From: Picochlorum sp. SENEW3
Taxonomy: Eukaryota
Length of the DNA: 64,000 nucleotides
Direction of reading: 5' to 3'
Assembly: GCA_034226945.1 (NCBI GenBank)
Contig: CP120462.1
Location: 372,001-436,000, forward strand
Position 1 is the stretch's first letter, and every line of letters starts with the position of its first letter. The translations under genes were made by a program, and so were the position numbers. Below are positions 5,124 to 43,988 of the stretch, piece after piece. The notes below the pieces were generated by a model, which saw only the letters and a program-made list of their open reading frames with translations, had not been told where the DNA came from and ran no database searches.

Positions 5124-8035
5124 TCAAGCATACGTTACTTTTTTCCCCATGTTTTCTGATGGAACTTCGAGCGTTCCATCCCGGAATCTCTGGTAGATGG
5201 ATTCTAGCCTGCCCTTCTCAACTTGGGACACAGATGGCCTTGCATCATGCATCGACTTTTGAATGTGATCGTTTTTGATGCATAGGCTATCTTTGCTGTG
5301 GTTGTTGGTGTCCTTCTCTTCAAGGGCTTCGTGAGCAGCGTTCAGTTGTGCATCAGCCAAAAGGGCTCCCAAGTCTGCACCTGAAAAATCTTCAGTGGTT
5401 TTGGCAATCTCATCGAGGTCCACGTCATCCGATATTTTGAGATTTCGAGTCAACGAGAGCAATATTTCTTTTCTGTCTGAGATGGATGGGAAACCACAAT
5501 AGAGCATTTTATCCAGTCTCCCTGGTCTCAATAATGCAGCATCAATCAAGTCAGGTCTGGATGTGGCACCAATGACTGCAACACCTTTCAGTCCTTCTAC
5601 TCCATCTAATTCCGTGAGGAGTTGATTCACCACACGATCGCTCACCCCTGTATTATCATGTCCTCTTTTTGGAGCAATGGCATCGAATTCATCGAAAAAT
5701 AGCACGCAGGGTGCTGCAACAGCTGCACGCTGAAAGACATCCCGTACACCTGCCTCTGAAGCTCCAATGTATTTGTTCAAAAGCTCTGGTCCATTGACCA
5801 CTATACAGCGTATATCAGCAGCTGCAACAGCCGCAGCAACAATATGCGTTTTGCCGCATCCAGGCGGTCCATATAGGAGAGATCCAGTCTGAAGTCGAAG
5901 AGGAGCAGATGCTATCAAGTCAGGATAGTGCAGTGGTAGTTCCAACGACTCCTGCAGGGCTTCTTTCACATGCTTCATACCCCCAACATCTTCCCAACCT
6001 TCGATACCAGAATGGATCTTTTTCTTTGTCCGAGAGCCCCACATGGCAGCGGGAACCATGCCATGGACAGCATTCTGCAAGTCATTTCTGGATATTTTGA
6101 GGGGGAAATTCACCATAGCTGGCTCATTCTCGTTTAACCAATGCTCTGCAAGTGTTCTATTGAAGCTGACAGAAATTATACGTTCTACCAGAGTATCAAT
6201 ATCAGATCCATCAAAGCCATCAATCTCTGGACCAATGGATGTCAGGTCAGATGTCTGGGCAACTGCATCACGTTCTGCTATTCCTGCTGCAAGCATAGCC
6301 AGTCTACTGTTTAGATCGGGTGACTTCAAATTCAATACCGTATCAAATCTACCAATGTGTCGCAAGCATTTGGGCAATTTGGAAACCTGTTTGCATGTAG
6401 CTATAAAGACAATAGGAGCCCAGCTACCACAATTGTTGATGGATGAATCTCCTAGAACTTTCCATTTGTCGCCAGCCTTGGTCACAACATCCATTCCTTC
6501 ACAGAGAACCCTCACCAATTGTGTTATATCTGGATCCTGCGGAACTTCATGTCCTGTTTCGTCTTGGGCTGGCTGACTAAGTGCCACATCCAAATTATCT
6601 AGAACGATGACTGATGGGGCATTCTTTGCAGCCCAAGAAAATGAGTAATTTAGCATGGAGAAGAATGATTTCGGAGATACCACACTCCTACAATCAATAT
6701 ATTTCGTCGCGGCTTGTACATGTCCTTCATGGTGAAGTACATTGCACAGTGATTTCACCAAGGCTGTCTTGCCACTTCCTTGTGGTCCTTCAAGCAAAAG
6801 TCCACCTCTTCGAGGAGAGCCCCAATATTGTAAAACAGATCTGCACTTATCACTTAGAATAGGAAGAGCAAATTTCAAGCACTCTTGTAGGGTATCATCA
6901 TCGCACGGCATTCTTTTTATCACTTCATCAACTGGATCCTTGGTCACATTGATCTGTGAAAGAGGAGCAGAGTTCGACCTCCTCAGGTAATTCTCCATGA
7001 ACAATGGAGGAAAAGATTTCATATTGAAAGGCTTGATCTCTACATGCTGAAAATTTTGAATGCCGTGGCGTTTCAGCACGGATGAAAAACTTTTTGGGAA
7101 AACAGCATGTCCATTGGGCAGACTCTTGATAGTGCAAACACGTGCCAACATGTCAGTTTTGAATTTGGCCCCAGAACGCACCCCGACAATACTGCCGCTC
7201 TCAATTAATGAACGATTCTGTATTTGTTCAAGTGTACTCGAAGAGATATACACTCTTGGTTCACCATCAGGGTTGTCCTGGTCTCTGACATTGTCCAACA
7301 CAGATACCCGCAGCAGGACAGGAGCAGGTGTAGCCTCATCTTTTGAGGGATCTTCGGACGCTTTTTGTCGAGGTCGAGGTGCTATTGAAACTTCGGTTCC
7401 CGCTACAAGCCGTACCACATCTTGATTTGGGTCCGTTGCTGTGATCTTTAGTGCAATCATCTGTCCTTGTATCCAAATTGGCAACGACCTATGGACACTC
7501 ACCACACCGCATTGCTCCAGAAGACGACTCTCTATATCGTTCGCATTCAATTCTACTACTTCCCAATCATCAGAGGATGCCGGCTCAAGAGTAACAGTGT
7601 TGGCCACATCGACTGCTGAGAGTGGTGTCAGCATAACAGATGCACCCTCTGGTATGTGCAACAGCATCCCAAGTCTCGATGATATACTCACCTTTCCATT
7701 CTGAGACACAGATCCAGACCAACCAAGATAATGTGGAGCTCCAATAGGTACTCCTGGTCCGGCAAACAATTGCAATCGAAAGGTCAGAGGCAAATTTCCT
7801 TCACTCAGTAGCCTGCCTGCCAAAGACGGGGGTAAGCCGATCCACGAAGAATGCTCTCCATGATCATACTCAACAGTCAACCTGGGTTACAATACAATAA
7901 ATTAAATTCAATGAAAACGCTTCTCTGTCTTCTGTGGACACAATCAATACAAAAAGGGTGTCGTTTGAAATAGAAGAATTCGCACCTGTGCTCGGACCCT
8001 GTCGACTCAAATCCAACAAATTCATCCGTAAACAT
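5124..8035 (-). CDS. PEX1: Peroxisome biogenesis AAA ATPase PEX1; predicted intron 7882-7985
   Basis: N-domain EPASSDDWEVVELNA, D1 Walker A GPQGSGKT, D2 GPPGCGKT, GHDNTGVSDRVVNQLLTELDG. Confidence 0.93.
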
Positions 8036-8254: not shown

Positions 8255-8262
8255 TTTGAATT
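8255..8262 (+). repeat. Left copy of 8-bp direct duplication TTTGAATT (putative target-site duplication of repeat copy 1)
   Basis: TTTGAATT at 8255-8262 and again at 9590-9597, abutting both ends of the region shared with copy 2. Confidence 0.65.
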
Positions 8263-8355
8263 CAATAACTGATCAAATGTATCTATGAAATAACCAATTG
8301 GTTGCAACCAATCAATCAGGAGGGGGTTGGGTATCAATCTTGTCCAGCCTCTGGA

Positions 8356-9096
8356 TCAACGCCTCGTGGCGCCTGGATCTGTGTCATTCTCGAACATATA
8401 GGCCTCCTCGGCCAGGGCATGCAGCATGGAGAAATCTGCTTGTGCCGGGTAGGAGAGAGATGATGATGCCCTTGTGGTTACCTTCTTGGCTCCTTTCGTG
8501 GATCTTTTCGTGGATCTTTTCGTGGATCCTTTCGTGGATCTTTTCGTGGATCGCTTCTTGGATCCTTTCTTGGGCTCCTGCTTGGGTGCCTGCTTGGGTG
8601 CCTGCATGACTACGAGTGTGGTATCGTGCTTGAGGGACTGCAGTATTGTGGCAGCTTCGCCCACTCCAATCTCCTTCTTTGTCTGGCACAGCCTCAAGGC
8701 TACCCTTGTGTCCTCCTCGTCCCTGACGTCGTACTTTGTCCTCCTGACTCTCTGTCTCTTTCTTGCTGTCGGTGGTGTGAGCTCCACCATGGCATATACT
8801 ACCTCCTCCTCCACTCTGGTGTGTGCTCCTTCCTCCTCCACTCTGGTGTATGGTACTTCCTCTTCCACTCTGGTATGTGCTACCTGTGTGGAGCACTGGT
8901 CACGTCCTCGCTTGTTGCTGCGTGTCGTCCGTGGTGGTCGAGTCTTTGCTGGAGAGGATGGCACGTCGGTGTGGTCCGGCACGCCCGGGGGCGATGGTGT
9001 CGGGGACACTGCTGCCTTGGCGGGCTGGCCCGTCGTGAGTCTCCTGGCAATTGATCGAGTGATCATCCTTGTGGGTGTTTGTTGCCCCACTCTCAT
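8356..9096 (-). CDS. Repeat-encoded basic, low-complexity orphan protein (copy 1); start uncertain, possibly spliced
   Basis: 258-codon open frame intact in both copies, with an in-frame 12-bp indel; first ATG gives MRVGQQ; no recognisable domain. Confidence 0.45.
   Translation of the reverse strand: MRVGQQTPTRMITRSIARRLTTGQPAKAAVSPTPSPPGVPDHTDVPSSPAKTRPPRTTRSNKRGRDQCSTQVAHTRVEEEVPYTRVEEEGAHTRVEEEVVYAMVELTPPTARKRQRVRRTKYDVRDEEDTRVALRLCQTKKEIGVGEAATILQSLKHDTTLVVMQAPKQAPKQEPKKGSKKRSTKRSTKGSTKRSTKRSTKGAKKVTTRASSSLSYPAQADFSMLHALAEEAYMFENDTDPGATRR
8495..8606. repeat. 12-bp tandem repeats (TTCGTGGATCYT, encoding KRST/KGST, about 5 units) followed by CCTGCTTGGGTG units (QAPK)
   Basis: Directly visible; copy 2 has one unit fewer. 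Confidence 0.85.
8801..8881. repeat. 27-bp tandem repeat x3 (encodes xxTRVEEEx)
   Basis: TCCACTCTGGT core recurs with a 27-bp period; same in copy 2. Confidence 0.85.
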
Positions 9097-9589
9097 CGTC
9101 CCAGTGCTGTCTCTGCACATACACACACACAATCATCCGGAATGAGATGTCAGAACATACAAGGCCAAGGTGACAAGCCCCGGTCCCTCCCTCTTCCCCT
9201 TGGGTACCTGGAGCCACTGGGAAATTCAAAATCCCACAGCGCCAGACGAGGAGGTTGGGTGGTCACGAGTCAATCTCGCATTGGTGGCGTTCCACCCAGT
9301 GGAGCATGCCATTGTATCACAAATGTACTTACTATTGCAAAGGATGTTGCTTGAAACGTACCCGCGTCAGCGTTTGGTCGATATCTTTGTTTTGCTTGCG
9401 ACGGAGCAGTGGTCTCACGTTGGGAGTAGATCTCGTGTACGTTTGCGTCTTTGCTCCTCGCAGTAGGCATAAATAATGTAAATAATTATTCTTTGATGTG
9501 TATTGTTTTGAATAGTTTGGTTCTGCGTCGATTTGGGTGATCGCCGTGTCATGTCGTCAGTTTAAAATTGGGTGGGTGAGGGCGCCACC

Positions 9590-9597
9590 TTTGAATT
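9590..9597 (+). repeat. Right copy of 8-bp direct duplication TTTGAATT
   Basis: Identical to 8255-8262. Confidence 0.65.
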
Positions 9598-9903
9598 TTG
9601 GCAGCCGCTGCACTGCCATTTACAGGCTGTAATGCGCTTCGTTCGTCACCTAGGAGAGGAGTGATATGTCTCACGGCTTTAAAGAAATAAAAGGGGCCTG
9701 TAAATACGCTTATCTTGCTATTATAATCGATTCAGTTCTTGAAAATTACTCATAGAAAACATCTTCTTCCACGTCGCTAGTATCTATCCAGAAGGTTGGG
9801 TTTGCCCGAGCAAGGTAATCTTCTGGACCCCTAAAGGGAATTTATTTCCTGTGTAGCAGGATTACAATATATTGCATAGTGCTTGGCTAATGCTGTGTTC
9901 CAC

Positions 9904-11574
9904 CTAGCACTTTCCGCAGGTTGCTTGACAGTATCCTTTCATCCAAGGCTCATTGCATTTGCCCCACCTCTTCTGCTGCTGGCAGGTGTACTGCTTACTT
10001 GGGGGCACATCGGTGCAAGGCTTTGTTGGAGGACTATTGCCTGGTTTCGGAGGTGGTGACTTTGGAAGCGAGCATTTTCCGCAGGTTGCTTGACAGTATC
10101 CTTTCATCCAAGGCTCATTGCATTTGCCCCACCTCTTCTGCTGCTGGCACGTGTACTGCTTACTTGGGGGCACATCAGAGCACTGATTCGTTGGAGGCTC
10201 AATGATTTCTTTTGGAGGAACTCGGCTCTCATCCAACGCATTCATATATTCATACTGTTTGACAACAGAAGCTTTGCCATCTGTATCTGGACCTGTGTAA
10301 CCAAAGACATATCCCTGTCCATCATTGTACCCATAATAGGTATATTGGTATGGAGTTGTTGGATAATGAGAAACCGCCCATACTAATGTGCAAGCATACC
10401 CTAATGAGTTCACCTGATCGTGAATATACGAGAATAATGTGTTCCTTGTTGGCAGATATCCACGTCTCATTCCGTACTCTTCCAAAATAATGGGCTTGTC
10501 CATTGAATGTGCAATATCTCTTCTATCTTTGTAATAATTCTCTCCAAGCCAAGTATATCCTCCATCCGCAGACATACCCCACGCATCGGGATAGGAGTGA
10601 ATGGTTGCAAAGTCTGCAAACTTCAGATTGCACACAAAATCAACACCTTCGTACCCAGTATTAATCCAAGAATGTGGCTCTTTCGTTGGCCCATCCGTCC
10701 TCATGCCTTCATCACCGATAGAAATCATATGATTTTTATCAAGGGATCGAATGTATGCAGTCATTTCTGCTGCCCAGGAGCAAATGGTCTCTCCAGGCTT
10801 CTTCCCAATCTTTGCATCATACCCCTGAGCCCTTGGTTCATTGGCTAATTCAAACGCAAAAATCGTCGGATCATCGTAATAATGAACTCCTGTGAAGACG
10901 TTTTTGCGATTGATAAGCATCTTTATGAACTTTTTCCATTCGGATTTAACGAATTCATCGGTATAAAACTCTTCCACAGGTCTGTTCTCCCCAGGATATG
11001 CTTTATTCATCCAGTCAGCGAAGCCTCCCAGGAATGGCCAGTAGTTGCTGAGAACGATGATACCTCGAATTCCTTTCTTAGCCATCTCTGCAAGGGTGAA
11101 ATCGAGCCTCACCAAAGCCTGCTCATTATATTCACCAAAATCTGGCATCATACTGTTTGGCACAGAGTCAAAAAAACTTGTAAATATTCTGAGGATTGTC
11201 GCCCCTTGAGCTGCTTGCGCATCCATCATCGCTACAACCTCATTTGCGCTCATGATGTAATCTAAACCAGCATAGAATGCATTTGTACCACCGCAGTAGT
11301 ATGGCTTTCCATCCACTGTAAAGTCAGTGCCATCGGGTTTGACAAAACCAACATTGTTGAACACCTTGCCAGGCTTTGGCTGAAGAGCTGGATTACTCTC
11401 TTTCTTGTACTCTTGTAAGTAGACGTCGTAGTCATCGACTGATGAGACTTGCGCTTGCGTCATGGGCAAGCCTAATTGGAACTTTTCTGCAGCATACTTG
11501 TACTCGTCGGTTCCTGGCTGCCCAAATGCCAACATTGCTGTCAGCAACAGCGTCGTAAAAAAGGAAAGCATCAT
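9904..11574 (-). CDS. Secreted GH5 endo-beta-1,4-mannanase-like glycoside hydrolase with two C-terminal ShK-like six-cysteine modules
   Basis: Signal-peptide-like N-terminus; GH5 acid/base motif DDPTIFAFELANEPR, HSYP, nucleophile KPIILEEYG; Pro-rich linker; two CxD..C..WGKC..WM..C...CGKC modules; intronless. Confidence 0.9.
   Translation of the reverse strand: MMLSFFTTLLLTAMLAFGQPGTDEYKYAAEKFQLGLPMTQAQVSSVDDYDVYLQEYKKESNPALQPKPGKVFNNVGFVKPDGTDFTVDGKPYYCGGTNAFYAGLDYIMSANEVVAMMDAQAAQGATILRIFTSFFDSVPNSMMPDFGEYNEQALVRLDFTLAEMAKKGIRGIIVLSNYWPFLGGFADWMNKAYPGENRPVEEFYTDEFVKSEWKKFIKMLINRKNVFTGVHYYDDPTIFAFELANEPRAQGYDAKIGKKPGETICSWAAEMTAYIRSLDKNHMISIGDEGMRTDGPTKEPHSWINTGYEGVDFVCNLKFADFATIHSYPDAWGMSADGGYTWLGENYYKDRRDIAHSMDKPIILEEYGMRRGYLPTRNTLFSYIHDQVNSLGYACTLVWAVSHYPTTPYQYTYYGYNDGQGYVFGYTGPDTDGKASVVKQYEYMNALDESRVPPKEIIEPPTNQCSDVPPSKQYTCQQQKRWGKCNEPWMKGYCQATCGKCSLPKSPPPKPGNSPPTKPCTDVPPSKQYTCQQQKRWGKCNEPWMKGYCQATCGKC
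9907..10182. repeat. Intragenic duplication of a 111-bp cysteine module (9907-10017 and 10072-10182)
   Basis: Only 4 nucleotide differences seen; 36/37 aa identical. Confidence 0.95.
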
Positions 11575-12108
11575 TTCCTGAAATCTACAAATAATGAATC
11601 AAATTCTGACAGAAATCAGTCCAAGAAGAAGGCTCTGAGAATAACCGTCGCCTAACAGGAATCTTTTATGTACAACAATAACGCCCTTTTGGGGTCATTC
11701 ACATGAATGTAATACAAAGAACTGATTAAAAATTCATTCAAACAAATAAATTTCGATGTGATTGGGCGAACTGGCCGAAATTGATAAACACGTGTGCATC
11801 AGCCGTTGCATCTGGGAAGATCGAACTCTGGTCAACGGACCCGTTGACCGATCCAGTTCTCAGCCTGAAGCAGAGAAAATGCTGCATGGAAATTGAGACT
11901 AAATTTGATACAAAACTATGGTATGATGACGCACAGGATTGTAAGTCTACGTCAATATATTGAATCAAAAACGCATTTACTGCGAGATTTGAATGTGAAC
12001 TGCCATTTGGGAATTCCATGCGCATATCTCATGTTCCAACATTACATCATGTTTCACATGTTGAATTTATCGAGCAAAAACAAATATTTTGATATTCAAT
12101 CGGACCAT

Positions 12109-13423
12109 CAATAACTGATCAAATGTATCTATGAAATAACCAATTGGTTGCAACCAATCAATCAGGAGGGGGTTGGGTATCAATCTTGTCCAGCCTCTGG
12201 ATCAACGCCTCGTGGCGCCTGGAGCTGTGTCATTCTCGAACATATAGGCCTCCTCGGCCAGGGCATGCAGCATGGAGAAATCTGCTTGTGCCGGGTTGGA
12301 GAGAGATGATGATGCCCTTGTGGTTACCTTCTTGGCTCCTTTCGTGGATCTTTTCGTGGATCCTTTCGTGGATCTTTTCGTGGATCGCTTCTTGGATCCT
12401 TTCTTGGGCTCCTGCTTGGGTGCCTGCTTGGGTGCCTGCATGACTACGAGTGTGGTATCGTGCTTGAGGGACTGCAGTATTGTGGCAGCTTCGCCCACTC
12501 CAATCTCCTTCTTTGTCTGGCACAGCCTCAAGGCTACCCTTGTGTCCTCCTCGTCCCTGACGTCGTACTTTGTCCTCCTGACTCTCTGTCTCTTTCTTGC
12601 TGTCGGTGGTGTGAGCTCCACCATGGCATATACTACCTCCTCCTCCACTCTGGTGTGTGCTCCTTCCTCCTCCACTCTGGTGTATGGTACTTCCTCTTCC
12701 ACTCTGGTATGTGCTACCTGTGTGGAGCACTGGTCACGTCCTCGCTTGTTGCTGCGTGTCGTCCGTGGTGGTCGAGTCTTTGCTGGAGAGGATGGCACGT
12801 CGGTGTGGTCCGGCACGCCCGGGGGCGATGGTGTCGGGGACACTGCTGCCTTGGCGGGCTGGCCCGTCGTGAGTCTCCTGGCAATTGATCGAGTGATCAT
12901 CCTTGTGGGTGTTTGTTGCCCCACTCTCATCGTCCCAGTGCTGTCTCTGCACATACACACACACAATCATCCGGAATGAGATGTCAGAACATACAAGGCC
13001 AAGGTGACAAGCCCCGGTCCCTCCCTCTTCCCCTTGGGTACCTGGAGCCACTGGGAAATTCAAAATCCCACAGCGCCAGACGAGGAGGTTGGGTGGTCAC
13101 GAGTCAATCTCGCATTAGTGGCGTTCCGCCCCGTAGAGCATGCCATTGTATCACAAATGTACTTACTATTGCAAAGGATGTTGCTTGAAACGTACCCGCG
13201 TCAGCGTTTGGTCGATATCTTTGTTTTGCTTGCGACGGAGCAGTGGTCTCACGTTGGGAGTAGATCTCGTGTACGTTTGCGTCTTTGCTCCTCGCAGTAG
13301 GCATAAATAATGTAAATAATTATTCTTTGATGTGTATTGTTTTGAATAGTTTGGTTCTGCGTCGATTTGGGTGATCGCCGTGTCATGTCGTCAGTTTAAA
13401 ATTGGGTGGGTGAGGGCGCCACC
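12109..13423 (-). mobile_element. 1315-bp dispersed repeat, copy 2, same orientation as copy 1
   Basis: Same termini (CAATAACTGATC...GGGCGCCACC) as copy 1; flanks CGGACCAT and CTTCCAAC do not form a duplication. Confidence 0.75.
12202..12930 (-). CDS. Repeat-encoded basic, low-complexity orphan protein (copy 2)
   Basis: 254-codon open frame; differs from copy 1 by one KRST unit and two residues (Y/N, D/A). Confidence 0.45.
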   Translation of the reverse strand: MRVGQQTPTRMITRSIARRLTTGQPAKAAVSPTPSPPGVPDHTDVPSSPAKTRPPRTTRSNKRGRDQCSTQVAHTRVEEEVPYTRVEEEGAHTRVEEEVVYAMVELTPPTARKRQRVRRTKYDVRDEEDTRVALRLCQTKKEIGVGEAATILQSLKHDTTLVVMQAPKQAPKQEPKKGSKKRSTKRSTKGSTKRSTKGAKKVTTRASSSLSNPAQADFSMLHALAEEAYMFENDTAPGATRR

Positions 13424-13600
13424 CTTCCAACCACAAAGCTTTGTGCTTAAGCGGGACCGAAGATGTGTCATCGTGCGTCTTTCACTACAATTACATTTGT
13501 GTCATTTATATATATGTCTCTCCCTTGTGCAAGGAGAAAAAACGCTCTACAAGACACTACAGTTTGTACCATCATAAAAACAAGGAAAATAGTGGTGGTG

Positions 13601-14671
13601 CTACGAACTCATCTTTTGTTGCTGAATAAGTTCAATCATGTCAAGAACCTCTGCCATTCCGTGCGAATGGTCAATCATCTGTGCTTCATATTCCACTGGA
13701 TCTGGTGGCACATCTCCGAGTTCATACGCCGTATATCCATTCACGGCAGGATCCAGCATCCATCCATTAACACCTTGTGCGTACACTGCCACCTTGCTAT
13801 AGCCGGCATCATGTGCCATTTGAGCAGCCCATGTAGCTCGAGCATGGGTCCTCGAACACATAATCAACAGCATATCGGAGGATGGTTTTGGAAAATGATA
13901 CATCTGCTCAAAATTAGAATCGCTATTGGACAGAGCGCTACATAATTCATCCACTGGAATATTTCTAGACCCGGCAATCCCACCAAAAAGTATAATTTCA
14001 TCTCTCCTCCTGACATCAATCAATACATATGACCCCTCCCTTCTCAGCACCTCCATCGCAGGATCAAAGCATTCTTCTGACAAAAGCAATGCTAATCCAT
14101 CCCTACTGATGTAATGCAAATTCGACTGCACCATGCTATCCTTGTAAAATGCACCCAATGATCCCTTCACACACATGGTTCTCTGATATCCCAAGGCATT
14201 CAATGCCGAGGCAGCTTGGAATTCTTCATACTCATTTGATCCAATCAACACGAAAATTTGAAATGTATCCGGGAACTTGACATGGGGAAATGTAGATTCC
14301 CATGCCTGAGACTTTTTCAAAACGTCTCCAACCAGATCAAATGGCAACCGCACTGCCCCATGCAACTCCCCAGGCAAAACCTCTTGCTCAGAATTCATAT
14401 CGTTATCATCTTCGCTCATCGATCCCATACTTGTAAAAGGCCTCACATCTATCAATATATATTTACAAGCCCTTGTTTCTATCAGTCCCAGCAGTGTCGC
14501 CACAGATACCTGGCAGTGGTACGGACTCAGATCATAATTCTCCTTGGCATCCAGCCCATCAGTATCTTTTCGCTTAATCATCTCCGATCGCACCCATCGA
14601 ACCCCCCATGCAAGCAAAGTAAGAATCACGGCACTCCCTAAAGACCCACCCGCATTTGAAAACGTTGGCAT
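13601..14671 (-). CDS. Tandem rhodanese-domain protein with N-terminal membrane anchor
   Basis: Two ILIDVR/VLIDVR starts, G.I.GS.NIP, active-site-like CSRTHAR, GVNGW; hydrophobic N-terminus. Confidence 0.8.
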   Translation of the reverse strand: MPTFSNAGGSLGSAVILTLLAWGVRWVRSEMIKRKDTDGLDAKENYDLSPYHCQVSVATLLGLIETRACKYILIDVRPFTSMGSMSEDDNDMNSEQEVLPGELHGAVRLPFDLVGDVLKKSQAWESTFPHVKFPDTFQIFVLIGSNEYEEFQAASALNALGYQRTMCVKGSLGAFYKDSMVQSNLHYISRDGLALLLSEECFDPAMEVLRREGSYVLIDVRRRDEIILFGGIAGSRNIPVDELCSALSNSDSNFEQMYHFPKPSSDMLLIMCSRTHARATWAAQMAHDAGYSKVAVYAQGVNGWMLDPAVNGYTAYELGDVPPDPVEYEAQMIDHSHGMAEVLDMIELIQQQKMSS

Positions 14672-41100: not shown

Positions 41101-43649
41101 AGTGGATTTCGAGTGAGATTTTGGAAAAATTGAAGATGGATTTCGATGGCAAATCTTTGCTGGAGGAAGAATACGAACAGTTGAAGAAAGATCAAGCAAT
41201 ATTGCAAATGGAGGTGATGAAACATGGTGATCCAGGTTGCAAACTTCCTGTCAACTTGAAGAGACTGATTGAAACTGTGCAAAGAAAGTATGGCTGCAAA
41301 CCATACAAAGTAGGATACACTGATCTTAGCCCTCTAGTTGTTGCACAGCGTATTAAAGACATTTGTGCCAAGCTCACAGTGGTGGTGGGAGATGATGCTC
41401 TTTCCAGGGAGGCCCAAACAAATGCTACCTTGCTGTTCATGTCCTTCCTCCGGTGCACAATGGCTTCAAAACGTGTTCTCGCTGAATATAAACTGAATTC
41501 AAGAGCATTTGAGGAGATCGCAAGGGAAATCGAGCAGAGGTTTATGGCTTCCCTGGCATCGCCTGGCGAGGCTGTCGGAACTGTGGCAGCTCAAAGTATT
41601 GGAGAACCCACAACGCAAATGACATTGAACACATTCCATTTTGCTGGTGTGTCAGCAAAGAATGTCACATTGGGTGTTCCTCGTCTGACTGAGATTATTA
41701 ACGTCTCGAAGAATATTCGAACGCCATCTTTGACTGTCTATTTGCTCGGTGAAGCTGCTAGAGACAAAGAGGCTGCAAAATCGGTACAATGTTCGCTGGA
41801 GTACACAACTCTCAGGCGAGTAACTCATGCCACCGAAATATACTATGATCCAGATCCTAGAACAACGGTAATCGAAGAAGATAAGGAGTGGGTTGATAGT
41901 TACTACGATCTAAATGAAGGCGAGGTGGATCTCAACACACTCTATCCATGGCTTCTCAGGATTGAGTTGGCAAGAGATATGATGGTGGACAAAAAGCTGC
42001 TTCTCAGTGAAGTGGCCGAAAAGATTGGGAGCATGTACTCAGATGAATTGCACTGTCTATTCAATGATGATAATGCAGATAAATTGATTCTGCGCATCCG
42101 TGTGGTTAATGATGAGCCTATCGCAAAGACTGGGGATGGTATGGGCAGATATGGTGGTCCTGGTGGAGAGATGGGTGAAGATGAGCAACTCGCTTTCATC
42201 AAGAGGGTGGAGGGCAGTTTGCTTAGTCTTGTTGCTCTTCAAGGAGTGGACAATATTCGAAAAGTCTTTTTGCGTGAAGCCAAAAAGACTACGTTTGATG
42301 AATTGAAGGGAGAATTTGTCAATGATACTGAATGGGTCCTGGATACTGAAGGTGTCAACCTCATTGAAGTAATGACTCATCCGGATGTAGATCACACGAG
42401 AACGGTCAGTAACGATATCATAGAGGTTGTGAACGTGTTAGGAATCGAGGCGGGAAGGAATGCCCTTTTGAAGGAGCTTAGGGGAGTCATTGAATTTGAC
42501 GGCTCATATGTGAATTATCGCCACTTGGCTGCCCTTGTGGACTCGATGACTTCTAGAGGATCCTTGTTGGCTATTACGAGACACGGAATCAACAGGAATG
42601 AGACAAGTCCAATTCATCAGGCATCCTTTGAGGAGACTGTAGATGTATTATTCAGGGCGGCAACGTATGCTGAACGTGATTCCATGACTGGTGTCTCGGA
42701 GAACATCCTTGTTGGAGCTCTATGCCCAGTCGGAACAGGAGCGTTCGATTTGCTGGTAGACGATGAGTCTGTCATGAACGCTCAAGAAGTCGTTGATTTC
42801 TCAGAATATATGGCTGAGGGAATGGTCCCAGGTCTAATGCCATGGCAAGCCACTCCAGGGCGGTCTCCAGGAGCAGCTACCCCAGGAAGATTGATGAGTC
42901 CTTCGCAGCTCTTGTCGCCAACTGCCATGTCTCCGTTCAATGATGCTGTGCAATTCTCTCCTATTGCTGGTGGATTAGCATCACCCGGTGGCATGTATAG
43001 TCCGACAAGCCCTGGGTATAGCCCAACAAGTCCTGGGTATAGTCCGACGAGTCCGGCATATAGCCCAACGAGTCCAGCGTATAGTCCGACGAGTCCAGCA
43101 TACAGTCCGACGAGTCCGGCATACAGTCCGACGAGTCCAGCATACAGTCCGACGAGTCCGGCATACAGTCCGACGAGTCCAGCGTATAGCCCGACCAGTC
43201 CAGCATACAGCCCGACGAGTCCGGCATACAGTCCAACGAGTCCAGCGTATAGCCCAACGAGTCCAGCGTATAGTCCGACGAGTCCAGCGTATAGCCCAAC
43301 GAGTCCAGCGTATAGCCCAACGAGTCCAGCATACAGTCCGACAAGTCCAGCATACAGTCCGACAAGTCCGGCATACAGTCCGACGAGTCCAGCATACAGT
43401 CCGACGAGTCCAGCGTACAGCCCAACGAGTCCAGCGTATAGCCCAACGAGTCCGGCGTATAGCCCGACAAGTCCAGCATACAGTCCGACGAGTCCGCAGT
43501 ATAGCCCGACAAGTCCGCAGTACAGCCCAACAAGCCCACAGTATAGCCCGACGAGCCCAGAATATAGTCCATCATCTCCACAATATAGCCCAACCAATCC
43601 AGAATACAGTCCAACTGAGGATACTGCAAAAGGTGCAGAAGGCAAGTAA
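38200..43649 (+). CDS. RPB1: RNA polymerase II largest subunit; predicted intron 38290-38474
   Basis: CPGYFGHIEL, NADFDGDEMN, TQMTLNTFH, heptad CTD. Confidence 0.99.
42996..43616 (+). repeat. RPB1 CTD 21-bp coding repeat: 29 heptads plus a partial, mostly YSPTSPA
   Basis: Counted from coordinates and translation. Confidence 0.97.
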
Positions 43650-43988
43650 AACAAAACATATTTAAAAAACAAACACAAAATTTTTTCCCAATCCTGACTA
43701 TTGAAAGACTGTAACAAAGACTAACTTAACAGTGCATATGAAAAGATGTCGTTTGAACAAATTGGGATTCTCCAGCTCGCAAAATCACGCCATCTTGGCG
43801 CTTTGAGAAAAGATTGTCGGTTCGAACCGAACAAACCAACAACAGGTAGGGATTTTGCAGCCAACAACAACTGGCTGAAACCACAACTCGCCAACAACAA
43901 GAATTCAAATCCTTGTTGTTCCATAAATACCGTCCAGTGCCATTATTTCCCAAAATTAATGCCAAAAAATTTTAATTGAATAATAATA

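Follow-up and report, generated by a model that had tools for sequence, protein, structure and literature searches.

Does the pair of long direct repeats around a glycoside hydrolase family 5 (GH5) gene in Picochlorum sp. SENEW3 make up a mobile unit that carries its cargo, or is it the trace of a local duplication around a resident gene? Picochlorum is a streamlined, repeat-poor green alga with biotechnology use, and the locus lies in a 64,000-nucleotide stretch of its genome (contig CP120462.1, positions 372,001 to 436,000; hereafter, the window, meaning the whole stretch that was analyzed). An initial annotation of the window had described two same-orientation, near-identical 1.3-kb repeats enclosing a 2.5-kb segment, and had proposed that they form a composite-transposon-like cassette able to move, delete, or amplify the GH5 gene. 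We conclude that the locus is probably a fixed local duplication of an orphan gene, here called gene X, around the GH5 gene, with the two copies kept uniform by ectopic recombination; a composite transposon is not supported. The strains share one arrangement, and within it the copies overwrite each other, which argues for an old local duplication and not for a jumping cargo cassette.

The geometry that the initial annotation described holds up. The two repeats (Table 1) lie on the same strand and differ in the alignment by a 12-bp indel and by six substitutions, which fall at 8378, 8451, 9283, 9294, 9298, and 9301 when numbered along copy 1; the only clear gene in the approximately 2.5-kb segment between them, and its single long open reading frame (ORF), is an intronless GH5 gene with duplicated cysteine modules; and PEX1 and a rhodanese-domain gene are indeed the left and right neighbors. 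The genome-wide search that had been proposed alongside found the repeat in these two places only and nowhere else in the 13.85 Mb, both by DNA search and by 24-mer end patterns allowing three mismatches. Among 40 control stretches of 10 kb each, spaced evenly through the genome, not one held a spaced near-identical pair around a gene (the sole stretch to pass the filter was a tandem array), and judged from these controls the X-GH5-X pair is unlikely to be a product of chance.

The initial annotation had named an assembly artefact in the second copy as the finding that would overturn it, and Picochlorum genomes are often diploid, according to PMC12636532, such that two haplotypes, or one repeat, might have been written twice. 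We used 4 of the 24 listed sequencing runs (X1, X2, X11, and X16), as contigs; run X1 is perhaps the window's own sample, and the coverage of run X11 is too thin for depth ratios. Relative to the flanks, the depth of the repeat is 1.72x in run X1, 2.32x in run X2, and 1.95-2.27x in run X16, i.e., about twice that of single-copy flanks. The right junction of copy 1 is bridged in runs X2 and X11, and the left junctions of both copies in run X16. For the right junction of copy 2, no contig listed spans by 31 bases. The junction overlaps in run X1 are 30 bp long and were not counted as bridging. With the doubled depth, the bridged junctions, and two X loci in the independent annotations of Picochlorum renovo and Picochlorum sp. 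BPE23, we give an artefact virtually no credence and regard that reading as already refuted.

Two features were absent from the initial annotation, namely an intact ORF of approximately 246 aa in each repeat (ORF X) and an 8-bp direct repeat that flanks copy 1 alone. The ORF X product is basic (isoelectric point 10.3, 20% Lys+Arg) and of low complexity, with no Pfam family matched and no usable match in the ESM Atlas. A word search retrieved five true relatives, and a profile search of 1.84 billion proteins retrieved six matches, all of the X family; the named relatives are all from Picochlorum, specifically P. renovo and BPE23. The frame is kept open in a relative at 68% identity, and among the indels listed for run X16, those within ORF X are 12 and 27 bp long, both in frame, with at least those of 10, 4, 3, and 3 bp falling outside it. 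This conservation of the frame, together with the restriction of the named relatives to Picochlorum, identifies the repeat as a duplicated orphan gene: each repeat is a whole copy of a basic, low-complexity, Picochlorum-specific gene and not a transposon end. Genome searches found no X-family members beyond five known copies, and a degenerate motif scan for more gave 31 matches against 61 in a reversed control, with only the five known copies continuing the motif among the 30 translated. Our literature search found nothing on this locus or on the ORF X gene family, an undescribed, genus-specific one that is duplicated at each of its two loci.

The arrangement is old and occupies one site in the strains compared. 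In P. renovo, whose assembly was built from long reads at 270x according to PMC6811619, the gene order matches the window, running from COG4 (NNA_007033) through X (NNA_007037), the mannanase (NNA_007038/NNA_007039), and X (NNA_007040) to CBR2 (NNA_007048), as given in rows of supplement file 3 of that article. In BPE23, X lies at M9435_005935 and M9435_005937 with one locus number between; a near-identical BPE23 GH5 protein was not among the GH5 relatives retrieved, so that the identity of the gene between them is an assumption. In run X16, the flanks diverge by 1.6-2.7% from the window, and both copies are present at the same left junctions. These left junctions and the P. renovo locus order agree in placing the duplication before the split of the compared lineages, and no loss, gain, or relocation of GH5 was seen in the strains compared.

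The two copies are nevertheless far more alike than this age would suggest. The run X16 repeat contigs differ from the window by 33 substitutions in approximately 1224 bp (approximately 2.7%) plus indels, against 0.5% between the two copies in the window, and since these contigs are at 2x depth, both run X16 copies carry those changes. The same holds for the proteins: the ORF X products differ by two substitutions and one gap within the window pair and by one and one within the BPE23 pair, compared to 7-11 substitutions and 2-4 gaps between the window and BPE23 pairs. Private changes are found in both members of the window pair and in both members of the BPE23 pair. Copies that are more alike within than between strains and that share private changes must recombine, and the two copies are homogenized by concerted evolution. 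We would like to note that run X16 carries different sequence at the promoter-side ends of both copies (window 9604-9645 and 13424-13431) and that the repeat shared by its copies exceeds the window's by at least 43 bp, i.e., the repeat ends have changed between strains.

In this respect, the proposal that the locus is a recombination unit was half right: the repeats do exchange sequence, as the strain-private changes in both copies attest, but the GH5 gene was not found to move or to change in copy number, its depth relative to the flanks being 1.08, 1.05, and 1.01 in runs X1, X2, and X16, i.e., in all three of the well-covered runs. We accordingly consider it very improbable that the locus is a cassette, composite-transposon-like or acting through copy number, by which GH5 is moved, popped out, or amplified often enough to matter biologically. 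The geometry would permit pop-out and unequal exchange, the homogenization shows that the repeats recombine, and the single X match for the BPE23 haplotype M9434 would fit a solo allele. However, GH5 sits at single depth and at the same site in all strains seen, and no joints are listed among the run contigs, a weak point since contigs cannot reveal a solo-repeat path.

The tests for a mobile element point the same way. A composite transposon consists of two insertion sequences around a cargo, per PMC1676026, and the locus resembles the bacterial form in that one useful gene lies between two near-identical units of 1.3 kb on the same strand. Unlike it, the window unit lacks a transposase, inverted ends, dispersed copies, and a flanking duplication, and shows no sign of relocation. 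In the flanking units, the ends matched as terminal inverted repeats at only 0/10, 3/20, and 6/30 positions, and no transposase was detected by a Pfam scan or by the profile search of 1.84 billion proteins, which returned the X family only. No target-site duplication of 4 bp or more surrounds the whole unit. With neither TG..CA ends, nor gag/pol, nor a dispersed family, the repeats do not qualify as a long terminal repeat (LTR) retrotransposon, a terminal-repeat retrotransposon in miniature (TRIM), or a large retrotransposon derivative (LARD), in agreement with the initial annotation's argument against a single LTR element. The cargo-unit interpretation itself is not supported by these results or by the occupation of the same syntenic site in P. 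renovo and in the approximately 2% divergent strain.

Gene X is also duplicated away from GH5. On contig C7, a diverged ORF X paralog (29% identity over 112 aa, E 7e-8) is carried by three same-strand units, two in tandem and the third 11.5 kb further, with housekeeping genes between and no GH5. P. renovo has the same spread, with NNA_003740 and NNA_003750 and PNG1 (NNA_003746) between them. NNA_003740 is transcribed at a low level in P. renovo (log counts per million, logCPM, 0.6; supplement file 3 of PMC6811619). Since the X paralog is duplicated on C7 without GH5, duplication follows X and not GH5. Beyond the stretch in which they are identical, the two tandem C7 copies are still homologous but have diverged (1 of 500 shuffles scored as high), the pattern expected of an old pair whose core was converted. 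A comparison of the window unit with the C7 unit gave no common promoter or 3' sequence above shuffles. Adjoining the tandem C7 copies is a 369-aa ORF (C7:737534-738643, minus strand; L016:4534-5643) that contains repeats rich in Pro and in Cys, matches no Pfam family, and looks like a cell-surface protein.

Gene X might itself be a copy-and-paste element, selfish or non-autonomous, whose hops are local, keep one orientation, and use a short terminal core that matches the target, in the manner of Cryptons or Replitrons, the copies having later been fixed and homogenized with GH5 as a bystander. Both X subfamilies are multi-copy, local, and same-strand, and the repeats are richer in G+C (53% and 57%) than the window (46%). 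The outlying copies also have flanking direct repeats: the 8-bp motif around copy 1 in the window, and a different, 6-bp motif around copy C on C7 (chance 156/20000), so that terminal direct repeats are present at one of the two window copies and one of the three C7 copies, and both motifs recur at the donor's own end. Precedents exist in that the terminal core by which Cryptons insert matches their target, and that Replitrons end in short direct repeats, according to PMC9977147 and PMC10288648. The window unit resembles these elements of Chlamydomonas in lacking inverted ends and in that one of its copies is bounded by a short direct repeat. Unlike them, it has no recombinase gene and no dispersed copies, its ends are unlike between the subfamilies, and its positions are fixed.

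What speaks against a selfish gene X is that no copies lie elsewhere in the genome, that positions are fixed across strains, that the window and C7 unit ends are unlike, and that the ends also vary among the C7 copies. A true target-site duplication in the 8-bp flank was considered and rejected, as the sequence shared in run X16 runs at least 43 bp beyond the 8-mer, and the 8-bp repeat is therefore not a clean target-site duplication. With PF00589 as the only tyrosine recombinase profile used, one match was found in the genome, below the cut-off, in a host-like gene on contig C5; no search aimed at a Replitron (HUH Rep) transposase was made. An Rfam scan of both repeat families gave no matches. 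Taken together, we consider a selfish, hopping gene X unlikely, if the least improbable of the alternatives. The gene with the weak recombinase match (C5:576880-578607; L063:127-1854) is 575 aa long and has a transit-peptide-like N-terminal extension, and it may encode an organelle-targeted host protein.

A bolder version of this idea is quite unlikely in our estimation. Here gene X would be a transposase-free selfish or non-autonomous gene that copies locally in direct orientation and thereby builds recombination cassettes around host genes, from which, at this locus, GH5 is transiently popped out or amplified in cycles that keep the copies identical. If true, such transient pop-out or amplification of GH5 might take place, e.g., during cell-wall remodeling.

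The enclosed gene is, from its sequence, a predicted secreted GH5 endo-beta-1,4-mannanase. Its N-terminus is signal-peptide-like, all 16 of its 16 best solved relatives are mannanases or mannosidases, and it shares the catalytic NEP and EEYG glutamates of GH5 endo-beta-1,4-mannanases (PDB entries 3pz9, 1rh9, and 1qno; plant MAN9-like). In contrast to these known mannanases, it carries two C-terminal cysteine modules, which gave a weak ShK-like match below the cut-off. It falls in an algal-looking clade, with 50-72% identity to metagenome proteins and 30-36% to plant enzymes. In P. renovo, the GH5 gene is expressed at logCPM 9.1, reduced at high salt (supplement file 3 of PMC6811619). A glycoside-hydrolase-like fragment that is otherwise unrelated (L022:2-751) also carries a cysteine module; it is open only with TAA/TAG read as Gln (table 6), so the module is common to a distant eukaryote.

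The converse history, in which X was single and GH5 arrived, either as a GH5+X circle that recombined into X or as an insertion with a very long target-site duplication, has to be weighed as well. The window GH5 is intronless while some of its relatives read as split exons, no GH5 remnant was found outside the unit, and a Dualen long interspersed element (LINE) gives flanking duplications with a median of 900 bp in Chlamydomonas, according to PMC9977147. Moreover, one of five GH5 paralog loci is bracketed by a repeat pair, in this case 211 bp and 98% alike. However, 530 bp of upstream DNA accompanies GH5, no poly(A) or LINE piece is present at the junctions, the other window neighbors COG4, V-ATPase B, and PEX1 are single long ORFs as well, and the X family duplicates on C7 without GH5. 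The single bracketed paralog is not significant against the controls (Fisher p 0.11 vs 0/40), and GH5 paralogs as general repeat cargo were rejected on this ground. An arrival of GH5 is thus improbable. A tandem duplication of X-GH5 followed by loss of one GH5 was likewise rejected, as there is no GH5 remnant and the flanks are non-homologous. At the bracketed paralog (C5, approximately 993.3-995.8 kb; L059:3786-3995 and 6110-6320), the bracketing sequence comes from the neighboring gene, whose 3' end is duplicated; this gene is labeled aldo-keto-reductase-like from sequence appearance only, and the second copy of the duplicated piece has a stop and a frameshift.

Under a local duplication, gene X would have been copied across GH5, as an entire unit of 1.3 kb, before the sampled strains split, with GH5 presumably the resident and X the mover. 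The first event may have been microhomology-guided templated copying (templated repair), and we read the 8-bp and 6-bp flanks as microhomologies of this event. The same-strand copies, 3.8 kb apart, would since have been repeatedly homogenized by ectopic homologous recombination, either as gene conversion or as unequal exchange in which expansion is followed by contraction. Crossovers deleting or amplifying GH5 appear not to have spread, probably because GH5 is highly expressed and useful, in which case selection would be what keeps it. Gene X may encode a nuclear, chromatin-type protein for which dosage keeps both copies in place; a disordered nuclear protein would fit its composition and its short AA..L-type helices.

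Several observations sit less comfortably with a fixed local duplication. The outlying copy at both loci has short flanking direct repeats (8 bp and 6 bp), as insertion would leave, and the bracketed GH5 paralog on C5 is of the kind that an arriving GH5 would produce. The BPE23 haplotype M9434 returned one X protein only, which reflects either a solo allele or a search gap. One 1x contig in run X2 has six differences at 9120-9205, three of them common to run X16, so the copies or haplotypes are not always uniform; run X2 looks mixed elsewhere too. NNA_007037/7040 are absent from the one P. renovo expression table searched, which is restricted to salt-responsive genes (supplement file 3 of PMC6811619). 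Finally, a metagenome scan with GH5 for outgroup synteny yielded 70 candidates and one locus, which was unrelated; a relative that has GH5 between PEX1 and the rhodanese gene yet lacks the repeats, the case by which the initial annotation would be refuted, did not turn up.

Table 1. Positions of the features discussed, in window coordinates unless a contig is named.
Feature	Position	Strand	Description	Evidence
Repeat copy 1	8262..9589	-	1328 bp; orphan gene X, from its upstream region through the coding exon to the 3' end	DNA search, 2x depth
Repeat copy 2	12108..13423	-	1316 bp	DNA search and pairwise alignment
ORF X copy 1	8356..9096	-	246 aa from the ATG at 9096; basic, low-complexity, without Pfam family	Public models begin at 9096 or 9066
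ORF X copy 2	12202..12930	-	Two substitutions relative to copy 1, shorter by 4 aa	
GH5 endo-beta-1,4-mannanase (predicted)	9904..11574	-	Secreted-type, 556 aa, intronless	PF00150, E 2e-13; catalytic E246 (NEP) and E366
Two tandem cysteine modules, GH5 C-terminus	9906..10218	-	89% DNA identity to each other	Single in this genome, also in GH5 relatives
Unique DNA 5' of GH5, presumed promoter	11575..12107	-	Adjoins the 3' end of copy 2	Without homology to the copy 1 flank
8-bp direct repeat TTTGAATT, left half	8255..8262	+	Flanks copy 1 only	8 bp or more in 25/20000 random segments
8-bp direct repeat, right half	9590..9597	+		In run X16, inside the 2x shared contig
PEX1	5124..7667	-	Left neighbor outside the unit	Gene annotation of the window
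Rhodanese-domain gene	13601..14671	-	Right neighbor outside the unit	Gene annotation of the window
X paralog units on C7 (three)	C7:733906-735605, 735718-737417, 748960-750612		Same strand; 1.65-1.7 kb	>99.4% alike

Two further repeats were seen in passing. A tandem array on contig C8 (approximately 352.6-354.5 kb; L093:2609-4510) has a period of approximately 490 bp and units approximately 95% alike, and a 21-bp tandem repeat in the window (42890-43693) is the heptad tail of the RNA polymerase II largest subunit and is ordinary.

Among known systems, the X pair is closest to local segmental duplicates under concerted evolution by non-allelic gene conversion: it is old, sits at a fixed site, is more alike within than between strains, and has a sharply bounded identical core. 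It differs from these in that what was duplicated is an orphan gene, in a streamlined alga, and that both X subfamilies show the pattern. The locus adds a new case of local duplicates that evolve in concert, and a eukaryotic composite transposon is not established. Its copies are homogenized several times faster than the strains have diverged while the GH5 gene between them survives, making the X pair a clean natural reporter of ectopic homologous recombination, with which the rates of conversion and of pop-out in Picochlorum could readily be compared. It also draws attention to the X family, genus-specific and so far unstudied, whose two loci both carry duplications.

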